A stretch of 64,000 bases of DNA, taken from contig CAJXLF010000010.1 in the NCBI GenBank assembly GCA_913055805.1, positions 85,040 to 149,039 on the forward strand. Direction: 5' to 3'. This stretch comes from an uncultured Salinisphaerales bacterium (GTDB lineage Bacteria > Pseudomonadota > Gammaproteobacteria > Nevskiales > CAJXLF01). The notes below the pieces were generated by a model that saw nothing but the letters and a program-made list of their open reading frames with translations, was not told the origin of the DNA and did not search any database. Positions 1,474 to 50,377 of this stretch are shown one piece after another. Made by a program: the position numbers and the translations under genes. Every line of letters begins with the position of its first letter. The first letter of the stretch is position 1.

Positions 1474-2973
1474 ATGGAGAATCTGATGAATAAATTTTTA
1501 GCCGGCCTGATTGTCACAGCGCTGAGTTTTTTCGCACTCACGGCGCAGGCATTCACTTATCAGCCCATGCTGGATGAAGACCTGAGGGAGCAGGCGCCTG
1601 TCGTATTACGCGGACAGATCGTGGGTGCAGACAAGACATTGCCTGCTCATACCCTCTACCAGGTTGCCGTAGATCAGGTTTACAAGGGGTCGGTGCCGGT
1701 CAACGAAATTACTTTCCTGGTGCCGGGTAACGGTGCCTACGACGGACGCCGTATTCCCGGCATGCCGGCGTTTGATGCGGGCGATGAAGTCGTACTTTTT
1801 CTGGTCCAGGACGGGCAGGGCAGATATCGGCTGGTACAGTCGAGTCTGGGCGCTTTTGTTGCAGCACGCGATGCGACTGGCGGTCCGGTATTTGAACGTC
1901 AGTTAGGTGAGGCCCGGGTGTTACAGCTGCAGGCGCCAAGCCGCTCAGCGGTCAACGAAGTACCGCGCCAGGCCAGTCATTTCCTGCAATGGCTGGGTGA
2001 CCCGGCGCCGGAGCAGGCAAGTCAGACGCTCAGCAGCCCCAGCACGACGGGTGCGGCTGCCGGTACGACCCAGAAGGATGAATTCAGCACCCTGGGGTCG
2101 CCACCTTCCCGCTGGTGGATTTTCGATAGTGGGGGATCTGTAACGGTAAGGGCGCATAGTGCCGGTCAGTCGGGTATGCCGGGCGGCGGCTTTCCCGAGT
2201 TTCAGACAGGTATCACTGCCTGGAATAACGATAGCGGCAGCAAGATCAATTACGTCTACGGAGGCACCACCAGTGCCAGCGGCGGGCTCGATAATACCGA
2301 TGGCGTAACCTCCATTCTGTTCAATGATCCCAACAACGAGATTTCGGGCGCTTTCGACTGTCAGAATGGCGGCGTGCTGGCGATTGGCGGTTTTGCTACC
2401 AGTGGTACGAATCGTAGCTTCCAGAGCCGGACCTTCGGCGAGATTATCGAGGGTGATATCGTGACCAACGATGGGGCAGGCTGCTTCTTCCGGCTTAATA
2501 ATGGCACCAACGGCGAAGAGGTTTTCGCCCACGAACTGGGCCATACCCTGGGGCTGGGACATTCCTGCGAAAACGACGAGCCCCTGCTGGGTATTCCGCT
2601 TGACCCGGAAAACTGTCAGTTAGCGACCAATGCCGAGAACAATGCACTGATGCGCTCCACGCCGCATGCAGACGGGCGGGGCGCCGCCTTGAATTCCGAT
2701 GATCGCGCCGGCGCTGCCTTCCTGTATCCGGAGGATGGCAGCAGTAATCCCGATCCTGACCCCGAGCCAGAGCCCGACCCTGAGCCGGAACCGACCGAGC
2801 AGCCCGACATTAACAACAATGGCGGCGGAGGCGGCGGTGGCGGCGGTGGTGGCGGCTGCAGCCTGGTCACCGGGCAGAACCTGGACCCACTGCTGCCGTT
2901 ATTGCTGTTGTTATCGGCGGGTTATCTATACACCCAGCTGCGCCGGCGCAGGACGGTGCCCGTCGGCCGCTGA
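1474..2973 (+). CDS. secreted zinc metalloprotease (metzincin/matrixin-like) with C-terminal sorting-type tail
   Basis: N-terminal signal peptide (LIVTALSFFALTAQA). HELGHTLGLGH zinc motif. PEPEPDPEPEP and G12 spacers. Tail is GCSLVTGQNLDPLLPLLLLLSAGYLYTQLRRRR. Confidence 0.8.
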   Translation: MENLMNKFLAGLIVTALSFFALTAQAFTYQPMLDEDLREQAPVVLRGQIVGADKTLPAHTLYQVAVDQVYKGSVPVNEITFLVPGNGAYDGRRIPGMPAFDAGDEVVLFLVQDGQGRYRLVQSSLGAFVAARDATGGPVFERQLGEARVLQLQAPSRSAVNEVPRQASHFLQWLGDPAPEQASQTLSSPSTTGAAAGTTQKDEFSTLGSPPSRWWIFDSGGSVTVRAHSAGQSGMPGGGFPEFQTGITAWNNDSGSKINYVYGGTTSASGGLDNTDGVTSILFNDPNNEISGAFDCQNGGVLAIGGFATSGTNRSFQSRTFGEIIEGDIVTNDGAGCFFRLNNGTNGEEVFAHELGHTLGLGHSCENDEPLLGIPLDPENCQLATNAENNALMRSTPHADGRGAALNSDDRAGAAFLYPEDGSSNPDPDPEPEPDPEPEPTEQPDINNNGGGGGGGGGGGGCSLVTGQNLDPLLPLLLLLSAGYLYTQLRRRRTVPVGR

Positions 2974-3414
2974 ATGACCGGGCGTAAACTCAGCAAAGAC
3001 GTTTACTGGTGGGCCGCACTGCTGTGCGGCCCGCTTTTTTGGGCAGGCTTGTGGCTGGCAGGCGTCGATATCCAGAGTCCGGATAGATTCCTGCTTTACT
3101 GGGAGCGTTTTCTGCTGGTTATTCTGATCTACCCGCTACTGGAGGAGATTGTTTTCCGGGGCGCGCTGCAGGGCTGGCTGCTGGAGCGGGGGCTGACAGC
3201 TGCCTGGGGTGGAATAAGTACCGCCAATCTGTTGACCAGCCTGGTCTTTACCGCTTTGCATTTCATTTACCATCCGCCATTTTGGGCGGCGGCGGTTTTC
3301 CTGCCGTCGCTGGTTTTCGGATTCTTCCGGGACCGTTACCAGCGGCTTACCTCAGCTATCGCCTTGCATGTGTTCTACAACGCCGGATATGCCCTTTTGT
3401 ATATGCGGTTTTAG
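2974..3414 (+). CDS. CPBP-family (CAAX-type) glutamic intramembrane endopeptidase, minimal 146 aa
   Basis: All three CPBP motifs are present: LEEIVFRG (EExxxR), FTALH (FxxxH), HVFYN (HxxxN). The protein is multi-TM. Its ATG immediately follows the TGA of the upstream metalloprotease. Confidence 0.8.
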   Translation: MTGRKLSKDVYWWAALLCGPLFWAGLWLAGVDIQSPDRFLLYWERFLLVILIYPLLEEIVFRGALQGWLLERGLTAAWGGISTANLLTSLVFTALHFIYHPPFWAAAVFLPSLVFGFFRDRYQRLTSAIALHVFYNAGYALLYMRF

Positions 3415-14078: not shown

Positions 14079-16256
14079 TTGACCGCTGGCAGACGGGTTA
14101 TAGGGGGATCGATCAAGAACAGGAAGAGTGAATCCGCTATACCGCCCCAGCGCGTGCTGCTGGCTGCCGCCATGGCCGGACTCGCAGTCTGGGCGGTTCT
14201 GGTTTATGTCAATCTGCAAGTCCCCTGGTTGGGTTTGAAACTGCTGCCCTCTGAAAACGCCGTGCGCGTAGAGGCTGTGGCGGAGCATCACCCCAACAGT
14301 GCGCGCATAGCGCCGGGTGATGTTCTGCTGACTATCGGCCCGCAGACGGCGGAACCGATACAGCTGCAAGCCGATGACTTGCTCAAGGAACCCGACGTAC
14401 TCATCGACAAGGGAGCCTATTCAGGCTTCATGGCTCGGCAGCAGCGAATTTACTCAGCCTATTCAGGCGGCCGGATGAACGTAGTCCTGTCCGATGGACA
14501 GCGTATCGAACTGCTGGCAGAGGCACGGCCCCTGGGCGCGATTTCCTGGCTGTTTTGGCTGGAGTGCGCCTGGACGCTGACTTGCCTTCTGCTGGGTGCT
14601 GCGATCTGGGCTTTTCGCCGTGACGAAGCCAGTGCTTATCTGCTGGGGACCGGCATCGCCTACTTCGTATTTGTTGCGGGCGACGCCATGTACGGCACGC
14701 GCGAACTGGCGCTGCCATCTGACCTGTTCTATCTGTTTTCCTTTGCCAACAGCGCGGGCGCCATGTTCTATCCTGCCAGCCTGGTGGCGTTGTTGTGGAA
14801 TTATCCCTGCCGTGTCGGTGGCCGATGGTTGCCGCCGGTGATTTTTGTTCTGGCCATCATGGCCTTGCTGGGCAGCCGCCTGCAGTTGCCGGGTACGGGG
14901 CTTTATCTGCTTCCCGCCTTCATTCTTCTGTGCTGTGTTATCGGGCTGGGTCTGGCAGTCATGCAATGGCGCAGGAGTCGCCCGGACCCGGTGGCGCATG
15001 CCATTGCGCGCTGGATCATCGCCATTCTGTTTCTTTCTGTGTGGTTGTCTGCCGTGTTGATGACGGTGCCGGTCTTGCTGGGCATGCGCCAGCTGGCGCC
15101 GCAGAGCCTGTTGTTCGGCGTCTTTCTGATTTTCTATCTGGGCCTGGCGGTAGGTGTGGGCCGCTATCGGGTGTTTGACCTGGATCGCTGGTGGTTCCGG
15201 GCCTGGGGCTGGTTTCTCGGCGGCCTTGTAGTGTTGTTACTCGATGCCTTGCTGCTGTCGTTGTTCCACATGGGCAAGCTGCTGTCTCTCAGCCTGTCGC
15301 TGGCAGTCGTTGGCTGGCTCTATTTTCCGGTGCGGCAGTGGTTGTGGACAGGGTTTTTCCAGCGTACGCAATCGCCGCTGGAGCAGGCCTTGCCACAGGT
15401 AATCGATGTTCTTTTTGCCGTGGATAGCGAGCGCGCTATCCGCGAACGCTGGCCGGAGTTGCTGCAAAAGACGTTTTCGGCGCTTAACGTGGAGTCCGGA
15501 AGGCAAGGGCTGATGCGTATCGAAAGATCCAATGACGGTACACGTTTGTGTATGCCGGCACTAGAAGCTGATGGTGATGTGTTTGAAGTGGTTTATCCGG
15601 CAGGGGGCTCGCGGCTCTTTACCGGCGAGGACATACAGCTGGCGGAAGTACTGCTGGCCTTGATGCGGCGTGCCGTGCAGGCAGTGCGTGCGCGCGAGCA
15701 AGGTGCGGATACAGAGCGTGCACGTATTCGCCGTGACTTGCACGACGACCTCGGAGCGCAGCTTGTGGACATGACCCAGCGTCTTCCGGATAAATCCAGC
15801 CGCGACCAGGCGCGTGAAGCCGTCAGCCGGCTGCGGGCGGTTCTGACGGCCATGGGCGAAGACAGCACCTCACTGTCTGACGCTCTAGGGGAATGGCAGG
15901 CAGAAGCTGATGCCAGGCTGTCAGAAGCCGGTATCAGCTGCGAGTGGCGGGCTGATATTCAGGAAGACCTCAGGTTGACGGCTCGCCAGCGCGCCAACCT
16001 GGTGCATATCCTGCGCGAGGCTATAACCAATATTATCCGTCATTCCGGGGCAGCGAAATCGACATTCAGTTTTTCGGGTGGCCGGGGTGCACTGGAGGTT
16101 GTTATCGCAGACGACGGTCATGGCCGGAATCCTGAGTCCGGCGCCGGTCTTGGGCTGGCAGGTATGCAGCAAAGAATGGAAGAGCTGGGTGGCAGCCTGC
16201 GTCTGGGTCAGTCAGTCCGGGGTGGGTTGCAGCTGGACATCCGGTTGCCTCTATAA
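14079..16256 (+). CDS. sensor histidine kinase (periplasmic PDZ-like segment, ~8-10 TM, HisKA_3 + HATPase_c; NarL/LuxR-partner type)
   Basis: RIRRDLHDDLGAQL (HisKA_3 His box). ILREAITNIIRH (N box). DDGHG...GLGLAGMQQR (G boxes). The start codon is uncertain. Confidence 0.8.
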   Translation: MTAGRRVIGGSIKNRKSESAIPPQRVLLAAAMAGLAVWAVLVYVNLQVPWLGLKLLPSENAVRVEAVAEHHPNSARIAPGDVLLTIGPQTAEPIQLQADDLLKEPDVLIDKGAYSGFMARQQRIYSAYSGGRMNVVLSDGQRIELLAEARPLGAISWLFWLECAWTLTCLLLGAAIWAFRRDEASAYLLGTGIAYFVFVAGDAMYGTRELALPSDLFYLFSFANSAGAMFYPASLVALLWNYPCRVGGRWLPPVIFVLAIMALLGSRLQLPGTGLYLLPAFILLCCVIGLGLAVMQWRRSRPDPVAHAIARWIIAILFLSVWLSAVLMTVPVLLGMRQLAPQSLLFGVFLIFYLGLAVGVGRYRVFDLDRWWFRAWGWFLGGLVVLLLDALLLSLFHMGKLLSLSLSLAVVGWLYFPVRQWLWTGFFQRTQSPLEQALPQVIDVLFAVDSERAIRERWPELLQKTFSALNVESGRQGLMRIERSNDGTRLCMPALEADGDVFEVVYPAGGSRLFTGEDIQLAEVLLALMRRAVQAVRAREQGADTERARIRRDLHDDLGAQLVDMTQRLPDKSSRDQAREAVSRLRAVLTAMGEDSTSLSDALGEWQAEADARLSEAGISCEWRADIQEDLRLTARQRANLVHILREAITNIIRHSGAAKSTFSFSGGRGALEVVIADDGHGRNPESGAGLGLAGMQQRMEELGGSLRLGQSVRGGLQLDIRLPL

Positions 16257-16931
16257 ATGCGGATTCGTTAATCCAAGGCGCGTGGCCTCCATCGCCGCCT
16301 CGGCGCGGGAGGTAACCTGCAGCTTTCGGTAAATGTTCTTGACGTGGTAGGCGATCGTATTACGGCTGACCTCAAGCGCCTGGGCTGCTTCGCTGAGCTT
16401 GTAACCCTTGGTGATCAGCACCAGGATTTCCCGTTCCCTCTGGGTCAAAGGCTCCTCGATCTCGGCGGGCTTGCCGCCAAAAGTGTCCAGCAGGCGTCTG
16501 GCGATCGCCGGTGACAGTGGAGGCTTGCCGTCAATAATGCCGGCCAGACTATCTGCAATCTCCTGCTGCTCCCCTTCCTTGAGCAGGTAGCCCTGGGCCC
16601 CGGCACGCAAGGCAGAAAACAGGTGTTCATCATCGTCGAAGATGGTTATGACCACCGACATGCAATCCGGGTGTTTGGTGCTCAGTTCGGCAATTAATTC
16701 CACCCCCGAACCGTCCGGCAGCCCCAGATCGATCAAGGCCAGATCGGGCGCTCTTTTCAGAAGGCTGCGTCCGCCTTTGACATCTTCGGCCGTGGACACT
16801 TGTGCGTTCGGAAAAGCCAGGTCCAGCGCCCCCGTCAGCCACTCGAGGCTGGCAGGCCGGTCCTCGACCACGATGATTCGGTGGATTGTCTTGGCGGACA
16901 ACGGTTCTCTCCGGTCTGCATGCTGATTCAC
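16251..16931 (-). CDS. LuxR/NarL-family response regulator (REC + HTH)
   Basis: The receiver domain has IIVVEDRP...DLALIDLGLPDGSG. The C-terminus has LTQREREILVLITKGYKLSEAAQALEVSRNTIAYHVKNIYRKL. There is a convergent 6-bp overlap with the kinase gene. Confidence 0.9.
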   Translation of the reverse strand: MNQHADRREPLSAKTIHRIIVVEDRPASLEWLTGALDLAFPNAQVSTAEDVKGGRSLLKRAPDLALIDLGLPDGSGVELIAELSTKHPDCMSVVITIFDDDEHLFSALRAGAQGYLLKEGEQQEIADSLAGIIDGKPPLSPAIARRLLDTFGGKPAEIEEPLTQREREILVLITKGYKLSEAAQALEVSRNTIAYHVKNIYRKLQVTSRAEAAMEATRLGLTNPHL

Positions 16932-17102
16932 TTCTGATTGTAGGCCACCGCCTACCCAAACATGTAGGACGGGCCGGATTTTGTTCGCCCAGACTGATGG
17001 CTAAGAAGCGAACGGCGGGGATCGGTCATGATTATTGGTATCGATAAAAGCATCCGGGCGACGCATCGTGTGAAAGCAGGGTGGTTTGTTGTGATGACCT
17101 GC

Positions 17103-17270
17103 ATGGCAGATCAGTCACAGGCAGCCATGCCGGCATTGGGCGATAAAAACGATCCCGGTGCTGCTGCCTCGGTCCCCGTTCTTCTACTGCTGTTTTTGCT
17201 GGCTGTGGGCTGGCTGGCGGTGGGTTGGTTCGCCAGCCGGCATGCAAGGAGATCCGGGCCATGGAAATGA
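17103..17270 (+). CDS. possible small membrane protein (55 aa) overlapping the start of the downstream surface protein
   Basis: MADQSQAAMPALGDKNDPGAAASVPVLLLLFLLAVGWLAVGWFASRHARRSGPWK has one TM segment plus a basic cluster. Its TGA overlaps ATG 17261/17267. No clear Shine-Dalgarno sequence was seen, so it may be spurious. Confidence 0.2.
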   Translation: MADQSQAAMPALGDKNDPGAAASVPVLLLLFLLAVGWLAVGWFASRHARRSGPWK

Positions 17271-19483
17271 AAAAACTGAGTTTGGTCGTATCGTTAAGCC
17301 TCCTGCTCAGTTATCAGGTTCAGGCCGCCACGATTACCGTAACTGAAATGATCGACGACGACCCTGCCGTCGATAACGGCGAGTGCAGTCTGCGCGAGGC
17401 GGTGATTACCGCCAATACGGATATGCAGGTTGATAGCTGTGTGCGGGATGGGGTATCGGTGGTGGACCTTATTCAGTTCGATCCGGCAACTGATGTGGAT
17501 CTGGACATTGGCAGTGATGCCTCCTTTGCCATGACACTGAATGTGCCGGGCGAGGATGCGGCGATGAGCGGCGATCTGGATGTGCTGGATAACCTGCGTA
17601 TCCAGGGTAACTTCATTCCCAATTCAGGCAGTGATAAGGGTACGGTGATCGCTGCCGATGGTAATGACCGGGTGTTCCATGTTCTCAACAACGCCTTTTT
17701 ACAACTTGAGAACGCTGTAGTGATTGCTGGCGGTGGAGTGCCCAACGGAGCCGGTATCGCTGTCAACGCAGGCTCTGAGTTGACCCTGCGTCAGGCATTC
17801 CTGTTTGGTAATAATGCCGAATCCTCGAATGTGATAGGTGCGGGGGGCGGTATTTACTCGCTGGGCAATGTGACCATTGAAGAGAGTGGTCTCGTCGGCA
17901 ACCGGGTGAGGTCAGTCGGTACGGCCAATCTCGCAGGTGGCGGCATCGCGGTACAGGGTGATCTGACGATGATCGGCAGCGCCATGATCACTAATGAACT
18001 GATTGCGGCTGCGAATGCCGGCGCTACAGGCGGCTCGATTTTTGTCAGCGGCAATCTCAGCGTCAGCGATACGGTTATCGATAACAGTAACATCGAAGCC
18101 GAAGATGGCGATGCGCACGGAGGTCATATTTACTTCGCTGGTCCGGGCGCCGGCATGTTCAACCTGCAGAACAGTTTTCTGCGTAGCGCAGATATCGAGT
18201 TCACTGGGACAGGTAGTGCGCGTGGTGCGGGTATTTATCATGGGGAAGGCCAGGCCACCATCGAACGCACGACCATCTTCGACAGTGATGTGCAGACACC
18301 ACAGATGAGTTCGCCTGGTGTGGCGTTGGGTGGCGGCATCTTTGCCCTTGATCCGCTCAGCCTGACCAATGCCACGATCATGGGTAACGAAGCTGTCAGT
18401 GCAAGTACTGCCGAAGGTGGGGCCATCTACCTTGGCGAGATGGATGCCAGTCTAGTGCTGAACAACGTGACCATCTTCGGTAATCAGGCTGTTCAGACTG
18501 GCGGTGGAGGTCTTGCTGGCGGAATCAGTAATGTATTTGGCGCCGTGGTGACAGTTGGCAACAGCATCATTGCTGGTAACGCCACTAACGGTAGTGCGCC
18601 GGATTGCCGCGGTGACTTCACATCCGCGGGCTACAATCTGATCGGCGACGAAAGTGGCTGCAGTTTTTCAGCCATGGTCGGAGCGGATATTGTCGGCACT
18701 GCCGCCACACCCATCGACCCGCTGCTGGTACCCGTGCTGGGTGAGGAGCAGTTTGGACCCTTCGAGATATCCGGCTTGCTGCTTTTGCCGCTTGACGAAA
18801 GTCCGGCCATCGATTCTGCTGACTTGGCCATGGCGATGGGTGGCAGTTGCGAGGATATAGACCAGCGCGGCGAATCAAGACCGAAGGATGGCGACGGTGA
18901 TGGAACAGCCATATGTGACATGGGCGCCTACGAAGGCACGATTGATACGCCGGTGGTCAGTTTTAACGATGCTCTCGGTAACCCCGAGATTGAGGAAGAC
19001 GCAGGCAGCATTACTTTCGCGGACGCAGTGGTCCTCTCTCATCCAGTTTCCTTTCAGGTCAGTGTACAGATCGTTTTCGATGCGGGGGTGTCGGATGCCA
19101 TGTTGCCCGCCGATTTCGACTTCTTGCCGGCAATAGTCACGTTTGCTCCGGGCGAGACTACTGCCGACTTGGTGATCACTCCCGTTGATGATGCTGTGGA
19201 TGAGCCGGACGAAGTGATTGTTTTCAAACTGGGCAATGTGATGAGCGCGACGCTGGGTATGCCCGATAGCTTTATGGCGACATTGAAGGACCCGATACCG
19301 CCGCAGCCGGACGACGACGATGATGATGACGATGGCTGCTCTGGCTGGGAATATCTGATCTTCTGTGCCGGTGATGGTTGCAGCATGGGGAGTGGTTCGG
19401 AACGGTTCGATCCGCTGTTGATTCTTATGCTGCTGCTGTCGGGTGGCTACGTTCTGCGGCGGTCTTATATCAAACACGGCTGA
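17261..19483 (+). CDS. large secreted parallel-beta-helix repeat protein (CSLREA N-terminal motif, Pmp-like GGxI repeats, Calx-beta domain) with the same C-terminal sorting-type tail as ORF 1474-2973
   Basis: AAGGAG lies 9 nt upstream of ATG 17261. Signal peptide LSLVVSLSLLLSYQVQA. ECSLREAVITAN motif. Many GGGI/GGAI repeats. The Calx-beta-like stretch is ...ADFDFLPAIVTFAPGETTADLVITPVDDAVDEPDE. A D8 spacer precedes the tail GCSMGSGSERFDPLLILMLLLSGGYVLRR. Confidence 0.8.
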   Translation: MEMKKLSLVVSLSLLLSYQVQAATITVTEMIDDDPAVDNGECSLREAVITANTDMQVDSCVRDGVSVVDLIQFDPATDVDLDIGSDASFAMTLNVPGEDAAMSGDLDVLDNLRIQGNFIPNSGSDKGTVIAADGNDRVFHVLNNAFLQLENAVVIAGGGVPNGAGIAVNAGSELTLRQAFLFGNNAESSNVIGAGGGIYSLGNVTIEESGLVGNRVRSVGTANLAGGGIAVQGDLTMIGSAMITNELIAAANAGATGGSIFVSGNLSVSDTVIDNSNIEAEDGDAHGGHIYFAGPGAGMFNLQNSFLRSADIEFTGTGSARGAGIYHGEGQATIERTTIFDSDVQTPQMSSPGVALGGGIFALDPLSLTNATIMGNEAVSASTAEGGAIYLGEMDASLVLNNVTIFGNQAVQTGGGGLAGGISNVFGAVVTVGNSIIAGNATNGSAPDCRGDFTSAGYNLIGDESGCSFSAMVGADIVGTAATPIDPLLVPVLGEEQFGPFEISGLLLLPLDESPAIDSADLAMAMGGSCEDIDQRGESRPKDGDGDGTAICDMGAYEGTIDTPVVSFNDALGNPEIEEDAGSITFADAVVLSHPVSFQVSVQIVFDAGVSDAMLPADFDFLPAIVTFAPGETTADLVITPVDDAVDEPDEVIVFKLGNVMSATLGMPDSFMATLKDPIPPQPDDDDDDDDGCSGWEYLIFCAGDGCSMGSGSERFDPLLILMLLLSGGYVLRRSYIKHG

Positions 19484-19545: not shown

Positions 19546-20349
19546 ATGCTGACCCATCCCAACTTTGATCCTGTCGCTATTTCTCTTGGTCCGGTAGCAA
19601 TTCACTGGTATGGCCTGACCTACCTGATCGGCTTCGCCGGGGCCTGGTGGCTGGGCACGCGGCGCTGCAATGCGGCCTATGGCTGGAGCCGGCAGGAAGC
19701 GACCGATTTTGTGTTCTATGGCGCCTTGGGTGCCATCCTGGGGGGGCGCATCGGCTATATGTTCATCTATGGCTGGTCGCGCTGGCTGGAAGACCCGCTG
19801 CTGATTCTGCGTATCTGGGAAGGTGGCATGTCGTTCCACGGTGGTCTGATCGGCGTGATGCTCGCCTTCTGGCTGTTTGCCCGCAATACCCAACGCAGCT
19901 GGCTGGCGGTGGGTGATTTCGTGGCGCCTATGGTCTGCGTGCCGGTATTCACCGTGCGTATCGGTAATTTCATCAACGGCGAACTCTGGGGCCGGGTCAC
20001 CGATGTGCCCTGGGGCATGGTGTTCCGCGGCGCCGGGCCTGACGCGCGACATCCTTCGCAGCTTTACGAGGCCGGACTGGAAGGCCTGCTGCTGGGGTTA
20101 TTCCTGTGGTGGTATTCCTCCAGTCCCCGGCCACGCGGCAGTGTTATGGCGCTGTTCGGGCTGGGTTACGCCACGGCCCGTTTCATTGTGGAATTTTTCC
20201 GCCAGCCGGATGCGCACATGGGCTATGTGGCTTTGAACTGGATGACCACCGGGCAGGTGCTGAGTATTCTCATGGCCGCCGCCTCGCTGGCAGTGTATGT
20301 CTGGGCCGTCCGCCGGCCGAATCCGCCGCTATCAAAACAGGAGAGCTGA
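19546..20349 (+). CDS. lgt: prolipoprotein diacylglyceryl transferase
   Basis: HWYGLTYLIGF and GGRIGY motifs. The lgt-thyA order is present. Confidence 0.95.
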   Translation: MLTHPNFDPVAISLGPVAIHWYGLTYLIGFAGAWWLGTRRCNAAYGWSRQEATDFVFYGALGAILGGRIGYMFIYGWSRWLEDPLLILRIWEGGMSFHGGLIGVMLAFWLFARNTQRSWLAVGDFVAPMVCVPVFTVRIGNFINGELWGRVTDVPWGMVFRGAGPDARHPSQLYEAGLEGLLLGLFLWWYSSSPRPRGSVMALFGLGYATARFIVEFFRQPDAHMGYVALNWMTTGQVLSILMAAASLAVYVWAVRRPNPPLSKQES

Positions 20350-21183
20350 GTGCGTACCTATCTGGACATGATGCAGCATATTCTCGACCACGGGACCGAG
20401 AAGGGCGACCGCACCGGTACCGGTACGGTGAGCGTGTTTGGCTACCAGATGCGCTTCAATCTGTCCGAAGGTTTCCCGGTCATCACCACCAAGAAGCTGC
20501 ACCTCAAGTCCATCATCTATGAGTTGCTGTGGTTCCTGCAGGGCGATACCAACGTCAAAGCCTTGCAGGAAAACGGCGTGTCCATATGGGACGAATGGGC
20601 CACGGAAGACGGCGACCTGGGCCCTGTATACGGTAAACAATGGCGCGCCTGGCCGTTGCCTGGCGGCGGTCATATCGACCAGATCAGCCAGCTCATCGAG
20701 CAGATTCGCAGCAAGCCCAATTCCCGCCGCCTGATTGTATCGGCCTGGAACGTGGCGGATCTGCCGGACGAGTCGGTTTCACCACAGGGCAATGCCGCTG
20801 CCGGCCGCATGGCCCTGGCACCCTGTCATGCACTTTTCCAGTTCTATGTGGCGGACGGCAAGCTGTCCTGCCAGCTTTACCAGCGATCCTGCGATGTGTT
20901 CCTGGGTGTGCCATTCAATATCGCCAGCTATGCGTTACTCACGCATATGATTGCCCAGCAATGCGATCTGGATGTGGGTGATTTCGTGTGGACGGGCGGT
21001 GATGTGCATCTTTATAGCAACCACCTGGAGCAGGCCCGCGAGCAGCTCAGTCGCGAACCCTATCCCTTGCCCAGGCTGGCCATTCACCGCAAGCCGGACA
21101 GCATATTCGACTACCGATTCGAGGATTTCGAACTGGAAGGCTACCAGTCCCACCCGCACATCAAGGCACCGATCGCGATCTAG
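20350..21183 (+). CDS. thyA: thymidylate synthase
   Basis: [23 protein letters not shown] and the active-site region [12 protein letters not shown]. Confidence 0.95.
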
Positions 21184-48229: not shown

Positions 48230-48613
48230 TTACCACCGAATCCTGACTTTCTTCACGCCCCAGCGCCGGGCGCGCTGCACGTCGGTACCCATGTAGATAT
48301 CGATCTTGTGGTACCAGTCGTCGGGCATCTTATCCAGCACGGTGTACTCGCCTTCCAGGCCGTCTATGCGGACCTTGGTGCCACGCCGTATGCCGTGCTC
48401 CTCGATCAGGTCGGGGGAGACGGCAATCGCCTTCATGCCGGGCGCAAGCTTGTCGCCCCAGGCGCCGCGGGTGGGATCACCTTCGGTCTGGTCGGGCAGG
48501 GAGTTATAGGCGCTGGCCTTGACCCACATGCTGCGTTCTTCGGCATGGGCGGGCATGCAGGCAAGCGAGATCAGCAGGAAAACGAGGCCGTGTAGAAAAT
48601 AATTGAGTGGCAT
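48230..48613 (-). CDS. 3D-domain (MltA/RlpA-like fold) secreted protein
   Basis: Signal peptide MPLNYFLHGLVFLLISLACMPAHA. ASAYNSLPDQTEGDPTRGAWGDKL...IDIYM is the 3D-domain pattern. Confidence 0.7.
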   Translation of the reverse strand: MPLNYFLHGLVFLLISLACMPAHAEERSMWVKASAYNSLPDQTEGDPTRGAWGDKLAPGMKAIAVSPDLIEEHGIRRGTKVRIDGLEGEYTVLDKMPDDWYHKIDIYMGTDVQRARRWGVKKVRIRW

Positions 48614-48671
48614 AGAAGTTACGATCTGGAAATGATCGTGCATAGACCTCGGCTCAGTCCCGGAAGTTCTT

Positions 48672-50377
48672 AGATTCAAGGCATAATACTCTTGACATAA
48701 AGTTCTTGAAACTGAGGGGGCTATAGTTACACTCATTGATAACATCGCAGTAAATGCATCTGAGTGATATCCATACAATTATGTTCTCAGCAAAGAGCTA
48801 AGAATTAACTGCTATATAGCTAAATAACTAGGAAGATAAATAGAGAGGAGGTAGGACATGTTTTATTGGACGCATGTTCGAAAAGCGTTTTGGCGTACTT
48901 CTGCGAAGCTTCATGTCCCCCAATGCTTATTTCTTTTGTGCTTGGCTGTTTTCTCTTCTGGCTTAGGGGCGTGGGAAGAAGATTATGAGATTCTGAGAGA
49001 TGACGATTATGTATGTGATCAGGATTCGAATATTTTAGAAAGCAAGAAAAGGAGAGGGCTTGCTTCTTTGATCCAGGCTGTTGAGTCCAAAAAAGTAATA
49101 TTAGTGGTTAATAAAGGTACTTTCTCTCTTAATAAATTTAAAAACTCAAGAACTCGGAGAATCAGTTATTCGAAGAACAACTGGATCCCCAATGGAAGTG
49201 TGGTGGTATTTGCCAATGATTTAGAGCCTGGAATATGTATTCCGATTAGATCAGCCGACGAATCAATTTATTATTTTAATGTGATTAGCGATGAGGGTGT
49301 CTCAGGATATGTGGAAAGACAGTATTTATCTACACTGCCTTACCCTGAAGGTGACGAGAAATACTATTTTCCCAGAAGCGAAATAAAAATTTACAAAAAC
49401 AAAGAACATTCTGAAATTAAATCATCCGCAAATCCAATACAAGGTGTGTATTTTAGATACTTGGCAAGTAAACCAGGTGTGAAGCAAGTCAGTTATTTCC
49501 ATCTACTTGGAAATGAAGATCGATTTGATGTTTGGAGAGGGGAATCTATTGATGCACAAATAGAAAAAGAGGTCGGTTGGATTAAATCAGAGGAATTAAG
49601 TGCTGGACGAATTAAAGAGGTATCTAAGAAAAATCTAAGTTTATTGAGGCAGATCAAAATTCAAAAGCAGCGAGGAAACGAGAGTGATAAGGATGCTTTT
49701 ATAACTACTCTAAGTAAATTAAGAGATCAGGAAAAAATCAGGCAAGTGGTTAAGAAGCTAAAATCTGAGTTACCCTCTAATTTTTCTTGTAATTCTGAAG
49801 TGGATGTGGAATTAGCTGCGGGTATTGAGGCGAAAACGCCGCCGTTTTTTGTCGCCCTAAAGGGTAATGTGGGCGGAAATGTTAAATGGGTGATAAAAGA
49901 GAAGAATACGAAACTTCTTTATGAAAACTACAAAATTTATTCAAGTTCCTTAGGGCAAAATTTAGCTGTGGTTCGAAGGGCAAAGTGTAAAGATGATGAT
50001 GTGTTGGATGAGCTTGAATTTGTGAAGTTCAGTCTGCCTCAATTAGGTACGGAAACGCCATTGGTTTTTGGCATGAAAGAAAACGGAGAAAAGTTAAAGG
50101 ACCACATAGCCAAAACATACTTTGGCAAAATAAGTGATCCGAAGATGTATCAGATATCAGGCCATGAAAGCTGGTTGACGGTCTATCAATATGTAGAAAA
50201 TAGCTTGGTAAATAAATCCCCTGCCCAATGGAGTGACATCACAACCGCAAGTAATACAGACGGCACGAGTCAGGAGTATGCACTAAGACAGGCTTTGCGG
50301 GCATTCATTATTCAGAGAATTGCACACTTTAAAAATTAGTTGCTATAGCTATTGCTTATTTCGTTAAATCAGCTATA
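48672..50377. mobile_element. AT-rich ~1.7 kb islet bounded by 20-bp direct repeats (48652-48671 / 50378-50397) that duplicate the yajQ 3' end
   Basis: The left repeat is GCTCAGTCCCGGAAGTTCT and the right is GCTCAGTCCCGAAAGTTCT (19/20 identical). Both encode NFRD-stop on the minus strand. The composition between them is visibly AT-rich compared with the flanks. No recombinase is present. Confidence 0.55.
48858..50339 (+). CDS. hypothetical 493-aa protein (ORFan), N-terminal signal/anchor
   Basis: Strong GGAGG Shine-Dalgarno sequence 7 nt upstream. It is the only long ORF in the AT-rich islet. No family was recognised. There are two possible SH3b-like segments and a Lys/Glu-rich central stretch. 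Confidence 0.6.
   Translation: MFYWTHVRKAFWRTSAKLHVPQCLFLLCLAVFSSGLGAWEEDYEILRDDDYVCDQDSNILESKKRRGLASLIQAVESKKVILVVNKGTFSLNKFKNSRTRRISYSKNNWIPNGSVVVFANDLEPGICIPIRSADESIYYFNVISDEGVSGYVERQYLSTLPYPEGDEKYYFPRSEIKIYKNKEHSEIKSSANPIQGVYFRYLASKPGVKQVSYFHLLGNEDRFDVWRGESIDAQIEKEVGWIKSEELSAGRIKEVSKKNLSLLRQIKIQKQRGNESDKDAFITTLSKLRDQEKIRQVVKKLKSELPSNFSCNSEVDVELAAGIEAKTPPFFVALKGNVGGNVKWVIKEKNTKLLYENYKIYSSSLGQNLAVVRRAKCKDDDVLDELEFVKFSLPQLGTETPLVFGMKENGEKLKDHIAKTYFGKISDPKMYQISGHESWLTVYQYVENSLVNKSPAQWSDITTASNTDGTSQEYALRQALRAFIIQRIAHFKN

Follow-up and report, generated by a model that had tools for sequence, protein, structure and literature searches.

JDVT-CTERM-type tails on two unrelated secreted proteins encoded with a MrtJ-type protease in an uncultured Salinisphaerales bacterium

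Two tailed proteins and a small intramembrane protease

We analysed a stretch of 64,000 nucleotides (64 kb; hereafter the window) from an uncultured Salinisphaerales bacterium, positions 85,040 to 149,039 of the forward strand of contig CAJXLF010000010.1 in GenBank assembly GCA_913055805.1. The element in question is the C-terminal tail of open reading frame (ORF) 17261-19483, which recurs on a metzincin encoded upstream, next to the gene of a small CPBP protease. Both tails and the protease pass curated NCBIfam models, and the system is the known JDVT-CTERM/MrtJ pair. Judged by its sequence, the shared tail is a real sorting signal, the JDVT-CTERM tag that has already been described, which makes this a rediscovery and not a new system. 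An earlier reading of the DNA without database searches (the first-pass annotation) had arrived at the motif but had not recognised that it was already named, published and modelled as a hidden Markov model (HMM). The features of the two proteins and of the protease are as follows.

1474-2973, plus strand: client 1, a secreted metzincin-type zinc protease of 499 aa with HELGHTLGLGH, a PEPEPD linker, a G12 spacer and a JDVT-CTERM tail (ORF and profiles).
2842-2949, plus strand: JDVT-CTERM domain of the metzincin, residues 457-492, with C462, D471-P472, the Leu-rich helix and R490-R493 (NF033191 alignment).
2974-3414, plus strand: mrtJ, a CPBP/Rce1-like glutamic-type intramembrane protease of 146 aa (NF033192, 120.5 bits, cutoff 75).
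17261-19483, plus strand: client 2, a secreted protein of 740 aa (ORF and translation; JGI P0001 at 100%).
17261-17326, plus strand: predicted Sec signal peptide MEMKKLSLVVSLSLLLSYQVQA, expected to be cut after VQA (by inspection: KK in the n-region, hydrophobic core, AxA-type site).
19310-19333, plus strand: D8 homopolymeric spacer, residues 684-691 (translation).
19334-19375, plus strand: extra segment GCSGWEYLIFCAGD with two further cysteines, C693 and C702, upstream of the region matched by NF033191 (translation).
19376-19462, plus strand: JDVT-CTERM domain proper, residues 706-734 (NF033191 alignment, 30.4 bits).
19379-19381, plus strand: codon of Cys707, the family's invariant cysteine and presumed modification site, with cleavage presumed just distal to it (role taken from the literature).
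19409-19414, plus strand: Asp717-Pro718, the near-invariant DP at the start of the helix, with D at Cys+10 (tail alignment).

The mrtJ gene begins at 2974, the base that follows the metzincin stop codon, and the metzincin is the only client that adjoins it. ORF 17261 starts 14.3 kb from the metzincin stop and 13.8 kb downstream of mrtJ, which thus occurs with both tails on the same contig. The metzincin passes the Pfam cutoffs for Reprolysin_5, Peptidase_M10 and Reprolysin_4. By inspection its signal peptide is MENLMNKFLAGLIVTALSFFALTAQA/FT (...FALTAQA/FT). Its tail is CSLVTGQNLDPLLPLLLLLSAGYLYTQLRRRR, and the protein end reads ...G12-CSLVTGQNLDPLLPLLLLLSAGYLYTQLRRRRTVPVGR.

The tails match a curated sorting-signal model

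JDVT-CTERM was defined as a tripartite tail with an invariant single Cys, a near-invariant DP about nine residues further on, a Leu-rich helix and an Arg cluster (Haft 2023, bioRxiv 10.1101/2023.06.07.544157). Its hosts include Janthinobacterium, Duganella, Vibrio and Thioalkalivibrio. According to the same study, the tag typically occurs once per proteome, 'always has just one Cys' and, in 16 of 17 cases, adjoins a CPBP gene; phylogenetic profiling singled out MrtJ with a score of 94.6, the next candidate reaching 41.9 (Haft, 10.1101/2023.06.07.544157).

We scored the window proteins on curated profiles. The NCBIfam cutoffs were 27 bits for NF033191 (JDVT-CTERM), 75 for NF033192 (MrtJ), 25 for NF041518, 25 for TIGR04214, 20 for TIGR03901 and 295 for TIGR04212; further cutoffs were 100 bits for Mrt_core, 180 for the MrtX model and 27 for Pfam Calx-beta. 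Both proteins pass NF033191, the metzincin with 39.0 bits and ORF 17261-19483 with 30.4 bits, in agreement with the earlier proposal that one sorting signal sits on two unrelated passengers. The last 57 residues by themselves gave 37.0 bits for the metzincin and 36.5 bits for ORF 17261-19483. In the latter the domain consists of G706-C707, D717-P718, the helix PLLILMLLLSGGYVL and R733-R734, after which six residues (SYIKHG) lead to the stop.

The first-pass annotation had quoted the C-terminal end of ORF 17261-19483 as ...PQPDDDDDDDDGCSGWEYLIFCAGDGCSMGSGSERFDPLLILMLLLSGGYVLRRSYIKHG. This end, the D8 run at 19310-19333 and the two G-C-S triplets (19334-19342 and 19376-19384) were all confirmed from the sequence, and the contrasting spacers that it had pointed out, G12 in the metzincin and D8 here, are both present. 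The consensus that it had drawn, G-C-S-[LM]-x-[ST]-G-x(3,4)-D-P-L-L-x-L-x-L-L-L-S-x-G-Y followed by basic residues, fits both tails.

Conservation within the family was read from an alignment of 18 tails, in which G, C, D and P form the only invariant columns. The distance from Cys to Asp is 8-11 across this alignment, being +10 in ORF 17261-19483 and +9 in the metzincin. The modelled region 706-734 holds one Cys, and C693 and C702 lie 14 and 5 residues before C707. A second Cys is also found in other tails from mrtJ loci (for example L017 and L032). The segment GCSGWEYLIFCAGD that carries C693 and C702 is missing in P0067, a probable paralogue (...DDDDDSWYGCVMG...), and a search for a DNA-level duplication behind the second G-C-S of ORF 17261-19483 found none. 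The basic cluster of this tail, RR..K.H, is weaker than the usual RRRR.

The likeness of the tails was compared by local alignment with 214 other ORF C-termini of the window and with 5000 composition-preserving shuffles. The two tails scored 71 against each other, while the maximum was 34 for the other C-termini and 44 for the shuffles. Six-frame scans of the window, which covered stop-terminated frames of at least 40-50 codons, found exactly two such tails, those of the metzincin and of ORF 17261-19483. The bodies of the two proteins gave a best BLASTP segment of 23.9 bits (E 0.018 in a single comparison), in keeping with the earlier statement that they are dissimilar. We thus confirmed that the two passenger bodies are unrelated and that the likeness of their tails goes beyond chance.

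Other tag families were also tried. The 57-aa tail of ORF 17261-19483 reached 15 bits on MYXO-CTERM (TIGR03901), below the cutoff of 20, and neither tail matched GlyGly-CTERM or PEP-CTERM at E up to 1, a search in which HMMER filters may hide very weak matches. Membership in these three families was rejected because of the scores.

A separate observation concerns the 3' end of the metzincin gene. Two independent assemblies (L088 and L089), whose contigs end 44-59 nt upstream of mrtJ, break within it, at about 2760-2860 of the window. The (GGN)12 and PEPEPDPEPEP coding repeats are the likely cause of these breaks.

The protease belongs to the MrtJ family

The 146-aa protein encoded at 2974-3414 passes NF033192 by a wide margin. 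The runner-up model, Mrt_core, gave 58.1 bits and the MrtX model 27.1 bits, both below their cutoffs, and the Pfam Rce1-like model PF02517 gave 58.4 bits. Its catalytic motifs, E57-E58-x3-R62, F92-x3-H96 and H132-x3-N136, do not vary across 26 aligned homologues. AlphaFold2 produced a compact, all-helical model with a predicted local distance difference test score (pLDDT) of 95.3. The homologues listed are mostly 134-168 aa long, and the best full-length match among species-representative genomes is 55% identical. The first-pass annotation had tied the tail to this CPBP gene, which is the same link between tag and enzyme that Haft (10.1101/2023.06.07.544157) drew from adjacency and profiling.

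The tail recurs beside mrtJ in other genomes

Relatives of MrtJ were collected from one genome per species. The scan gave 304 matches, kept as 80 distinct loci, all of which were fetched; they are mostly from uncultured Gammaproteobacteria. A tail HMM, which the first-pass annotation had suggested, was built from 16 seed tails (both window tails and 14 from the fetched mrtJ loci). With this model a JDVT tail of at least 28 bits was found in 18 of the 80 loci, 14 of these 18 being HMM seeds, and two more loci have weaker G-G-C tails. The tail of ORF 17261-19483 scored 55.6 bits, though it is itself among the seeds. Fourteen tails are encoded directly upstream of mrtJ on the same strand; at four loci one gene, OmpA-like in three of them, lies between client and mrtJ. 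Full-length homologues of the metzincin are present in two Nevskiales metagenome-assembled genomes (MAGs), with 58% (L061) and 45% (L020) identity, and each is tailed and encoded just upstream of mrtJ; these are the nearest metzincin-mrtJ pairs.

We also scanned metagenomes with the tail peptide alone, using the pattern [FLV]DPLL[IPG]L[LM][LI]L from a three-tail alignment. Two TARA loci were found, and the source samples were not among the results. In both, an unrelated 1373-aa passenger overlaps a MrtJ gene that scores 102.7 bits; the passenger ends ...GGGGCAINTNAEFDPLLILMLLFTGGQLIRRR and has the tail stretch ...GGGGCAINTNAEFDPLLILMLLFTGG... A motif confined to the two window proteins, or one found equally without the protease, had been named at the outset as the outcome that would speak against a sorting signal. 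The motif instead recurs beside mrtJ in many genomes, and the search by tail alone landed on mrtJ loci. A search of a 5.8-billion-protein collection with the 18-tail alignment returned only two short matches, a 35-aa profile being too short for its word index and for E-values scaled to so large a database.

Two further gene orders were seen among the mrtJ loci. In three MAGs (L029 5665-10444; L035; L077) a JDVT client is followed by an OmpA-like peptidoglycan-binding protein and then by mrtJ. In about 22 of the 80 loci mrtJ is directly preceded by the gene of a conserved protein of about 150 aa with an SseB domain (PF07179, 49-55 bits) that ends ...INPDWPVGMDMEPEMVQQLKSN; examples are L008 9510-9971 and L024 9448-9912 (coordinates of the SseB loci), with about 20 further loci. 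The three mrtJ genes of this type that were scored (L008, L024 and L044) reached 101-108 bits on NF033192, and no JDVT tail was detected within 10 kb of them. Since many genomes contain bona fide mrtJ genes with no client closer than 10 kb, dispersed clients appear to be normal for MrtJ; adjacency is usual in the family but does not define it.

The passenger of ORF 17261-19483 resembles rhombotarget A

A TTG codon at 17225 could serve as another start of ORF 17261-19483, while the JGI gene call is the 740-aa ATG form. Its layout is a signal peptide, a CSLREA motif, a beta-helix, a choice-of-anchor Q region, a Calx-beta-like sandwich, an acidic spacer and the JDVT-CTERM tail. It scored 35.5 bits on NF041518 (choice-of-anchor Q, cutoff 25). 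The literal motif C42-S-L-R-E-A47 is present, with 21.9 bits on TIGR04214 (CSLREA, cutoff 25), and Pfam Calx-beta gave 26.1 bits, slightly below its cutoff.

The AlphaFold2 model has a mean pLDDT of 83.5. It starts with a signal-region helix at residues 2-15, followed by a long beta-helix at about 100-470 and the choice-of-anchor Q region. The C-terminal part comprises a beta-sandwich (565-676), a disordered stretch (691-717) and a terminal helix (718-734). Over the D8 spacer region the pLDDT averages 56 (residues 681-690) and falls below 50 from residue 691. Foldseek placed rhombotarget A (9cdu) first among solved structures, with E 3.5e-7, and Calx-beta/CBD1 structures next, the latter resembling the beta-sandwich. 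The beta-helix/Calx-beta body that had been read from the sequence is thereby borne out by the model. The protein was rejected as an equivalog of RbtA (rhombotarget A; TIGR04212), as it reached 21 bits against a cutoff of 295, with its N-terminus only, and its tail is of the JDVT type.

Relatives of the passenger carry different tags

We surveyed the C-termini of 120 homologues of the ORF 17261-19483 body. The kinds of ends found were as follows.

JDVT-like C-termini: 4 of 120, of which P0015 (36.9 bits) and P0032 (30.0 bits) pass NF033191.
CFI-box-CTERM: P0027, 104 bits.
Gly-run plus helix: 6 of 120.
Cys plus helix without DP (GSGC-helix-RRK): 3 of 120.
PFDPL-type without Cys (PFDPLxILxLxRRxRxRR): 4 of 120.
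LFxDGFE ends: 7 of 120.
Short [FY]LP[LIV][LIV]x(0-4)-COOH ends, such as IYLPLVSR and FLPLVTR: at least 25 of 120.

Because the C-termini of the homologues are of at least six kinds, tag swapping on this rhombotarget-A-like passenger family is real. The first-pass annotation had described a CSLREA-type N-terminus as typical of choice-of-anchor passengers, which pair with many C-terminal tags, and the NF041518 match and this survey agree with it. The short [FY]LP, LFxDGFE, PFDPL-without-Cys and GSGC-without-DP ends may be unnamed C-terminal tags. The homologues with [FY]LP[LIV][LIV] ends, which are among P0011-P0119, are Chloroflexi-type MAG proteins by a few source labels. P0021, with the end FLPLVTR, matched none of the NCBIfam tag models.

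One relative, P0067, is probably the organism's third JDVT client. This protein of 884 aa combines a CSLPEA motif and a choice-of-anchor Q match (67 bits) with GEVED and Calx-beta domains; its spacer is D5 and its tail YGCVMGDAGGPVDPLLGLLILAAVVQLVRGRL. Its Calx-beta region is 49% identical to that of ORF 17261-19483. It is encoded at L003 582-3236, and also in L004, L005 and L006; these are separate contigs from the two JGI samples in which the window genes are found and from Logan run SRR6201700, where the window mrtJ is present as well. In composition it fits the window, with a tetranucleotide correlation of 0.965, that between the two halves of the window being 0.971. A LuxR/GerE-type regulator gene adjoins P0067, as one does ORF 17261.

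Relation to known sorting systems

The window agrees with the published JDVT-CTERM/MrtJ system in the G-C, the DP at the start of a Leu-rich helix, the basic end, the unrelated passengers, the CPBP gene of about 146 aa right after a client and the gammaproteobacterium-like host genome, and all three window proteins pass the curated cutoffs. It differs in having a second client 14 kb away and a probable third on another contig, whereas the published arrangement is typically one adjacent client. The tail of ORF 17261-19483 also departs from the published single-Cys description by its two extra upstream cysteines, and it has D at Cys+10 and a weaker basic cluster.

MYXO-CTERM and its protease MrtX share the enzyme superfamily and the logic of the tail. 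There, Cys-dependent cleavage, surface anchoring and activity in E. coli have been demonstrated: MrtX cuts MYXO-CTERM not only in M. xanthus but also in E. coli, and cleavage depends on the enzyme as well as on the cysteines (Guo, Haft and Wall, mBio 2025, PMC11980579). The route proposed in that work is Cys lipidation, with Lgt as the leading candidate, then cleavage and export through a type II secretion system (T2SS) (PMC11980579). Unlike the window tails, MYXO-CTERM has no DP, often has G-C-G-C and occurs on dozens of clients per genome, and MrtX is larger, with an extra N-terminal domain.

Rhombotarget A (RbtA, TIGR04212; PDB 9cdu/9cdv) has in common with ORF 17261-19483 a CSLREA N-terminus, the closest solved fold, Sec export and a tripartite C-terminal tag. 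The RbtA tag is Gly-Gly and is paired with a rhomboid serine protease (rhombosortase), whereas the window tag is Cys/DP and is paired with a glutamic CPBP protease. With Rce1, the type II CAAX protease of eukaryotes and archaea, MrtJ shares PF02517 and the EExxxR/FxxxH/HxxxN motifs. Rce1 cuts right after a lipid-modified Cys near the C-terminus (Haft 10.1101/2023.06.07.544157; PMC11980579). Its CAAX substrates are cytoplasmic and end 3 residues beyond the Cys, whereas the Cys of the window tail, with about 33 residues between it and the end, would lie before the transmembrane helix and outside the membrane. PEP-CTERM/exosortase tags have the same tripartite layout, with a Pro-containing motif at the start of the helix and then an Arg cluster, but no invariant Cys, and they are served by another enzyme family.

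Proposed route and alternative explanations

The motif is present in both tails, the tails and the protease belong to their respective families, the catalytic motifs of mrtJ are intact, and the tail is recurrently linked to mrtJ. Taken together, these observations suggest that residues 706-740 of ORF 17261-19483 are very probably a JDVT-CTERM sorting signal, as on the metzincin, and that the MrtJ encoded at 2974-3414 reads this tag. As read from the sequence, the N-terminal signal peptide would take the protein through Sec, and the Leu-rich C-terminal helix would stop transfer and hold it in the inner membrane, so that the Arg/Lys cluster stays on the cytoplasmic side. By analogy with MYXO-CTERM/MrtX and Rce1, the invariant Cys707 would then be modified, probably lipidated. 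MrtJ would recognise the G-C...D-P helix in the membrane and cut distal to the Cys, removing the helix. The folded passenger, held by its modified Cys, would finally move to the cell surface, probably via the T2SS. MrtJ appears to serve at least two clients here, and probably three. ORF 17261-19483 appears to be a dispersed client, with a rhombotarget-A-like passenger that bears a JDVT tag where its relatives bear other C-terminal tags.

Several points weigh against this reading. JDVT cleavage, the type of Cys modification and surface display are all proposed by analogy. mrtJ does not adjoin ORF 17261, whose basic cluster is weak and whose NF033191 score exceeds the cutoff by only 3.4 bits. 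C693 and C702 lie just upstream of C707, against the single Cys of the published description. There is no T2SS gene within the window, and the P0032 locus (10 kb) holds a JDVT client with no mrtJ on that contig. The tail of P0067 scored 21.1 bits on NF033191, below the cutoff, and 25 bits on our own HMM, and its assignment to the same genome comes from co-occurrence and composition only. Foldseek of the MrtJ model against the PDB gave no match (best E 2.9), not even MmRce1. A profile search of PDB sequences with MrtJ gave no match either; the link of MrtJ to Rce1 is therefore drawn from the Pfam and NCBIfam matches.

Some of these points would suit a different view, namely that the tail of ORF 17261 is only a permanent C-terminal anchor. 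The protein would then remain in the inner membrane on its periplasmic face, MrtJ would never cut it, and the tail would resemble that of the metzincin because stop-transfer helices have needs in common. The gene is 14 kb from mrtJ and outside its operon, the margin on NF033191 is small (30.4 vs 27) with a weak basic cluster, and processing of JDVT proteins is proposed by analogy only. A generic helix, however, needs no G-C and no D-P, which are the sole invariant columns in 18 tails from unrelated passengers, and the tail score of 71 stands against a shuffle maximum of 44. A disordered D8 spacer before the tag is also the usual layout of a cleavable sorting tag, and the cell surface is where a large passenger of the rhombotarget A type, with beta-helix and Calx-beta parts, would be expected. 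We consider a permanent anchor unlikely. That the likeness is a chance one between low-complexity, Leu-rich C-termini is effectively refuted: both tails are short, compositionally biased and preceded by homopolymer runs, but none of the 5000 shuffles and none of the 214 other ORF tails reached the observed score, each tail passes the curated HMM independently, and the same tail recurs beside mrtJ in other genomes.

It could also be that the tail is a sorting signal read by another enzyme, a rhombosortase or a second CPBP paralogue encoded elsewhere in the genome, with MrtJ serving the adjacent metzincin only. Such an arrangement would keep to the published picture of one adjacent client per MrtJ. 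The N-terminus and fold do resemble RbtA, a rhombosortase client, and Gly-run tails are found on P0003 to P0006, which are close homologues of the body. Yet the tail has the Cys and DP signature, passes the JDVT model, has no GlyGly-CTERM match at E up to 1, and agrees residue for residue with the metzincin tail over G-C-S...D-P-L-L...L-L-L-S-x-G-Y. Bona fide MrtJ genes (101-108 bits) without a client within 10 kb are, moreover, found in many genomes. Judged from the genes of the window, a different processing enzyme is very improbable, and recognition of the JDVT-CTERM tag by MrtJ is preferred.

The locus is a convenient natural test set for the JDVT-CTERM/MrtJ system, consisting of one MrtJ, one adjacent protease client and one or two dispersed adhesin-like clients, the tails of the latter varying in spacing, extra cysteines and basic cluster. 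It adds an example with multiple, dispersed clients and an RbtA-like passenger bearing a JDVT tag, from a rhombotarget-A-like family that swaps tags between sorting systems. The published rule of one adjacent client per genome is softened, but these departures from the published picture are small and carry little weight as discovery.

lgt and other neighbouring genes

The gene that follows ORF 17261-19483 is lgt (19546-20349; TIGR00544, 245 bits), the gene of a prolipoprotein diacylglyceryl transferase; it starts 62 bp past the stop of that ORF and is followed by thyA (20350-21183). No terminator-like site was found between ORF 17261-19483 and lgt. A bolder interpretation would connect these genes: a one-client MrtJ would have turned into a small general pathway with three or more dispersed clients and a functional link to lgt, in which Lgt lipidates the tail Cys before MrtJ cuts. 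We regard this as quite improbable. None of the other fetched mrtJ or client loci contains lgt, and lgt-thyA is a common housekeeping pair; for these two reasons the adjacency of client and lgt is taken as a coincidence, with a small residual probability that it is not. Apart from the sorting genes, housekeeping genes are found in the window: pepP, ubiH, gcvTHP, lgt, thyA, folA, purL, gdh, glpD and glpK.

Upstream of ORF 17261, a polytopic histidine kinase gene (14079-16256, plus strand) converges with the gene of a LuxR-type response regulator (16251-16931, minus strand), with a 6-nt overlap. The regulator gene is divergent from ORF 17261 across a 330-bp gap, and because of this divergent arrangement the regulator may control the ORF 17261 client. 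An ORF of 80 aa (17028-17270), which is a JGI-called gene, overlaps the start of ORF 17261 and ends ...DKNDPGAAASVPVLLLLFLLAVGWLAVGWFASRHARRSGPWK, with a helix and a basic tail. It reached just 10.6 bits on our tail HMM, and the DP follows its sole Cys at a distance of 17 residues, more than the 8-11 of the tag. The ORF may be spurious, or it may encode a small membrane protein.

Finally, a PEP mutase gene and a DUF520 gene flank a low-GC islet at 48230-50339, whose GC fraction is 0.44 where that of the window is 0.58. Within the islet are a 182-aa minus-strand ORF, whose C-terminus is weakly EntA-like (cell-wall-binding), and a 493-aa ORF without a Pfam or NCBIfam match; the islet was probably acquired horizontally.

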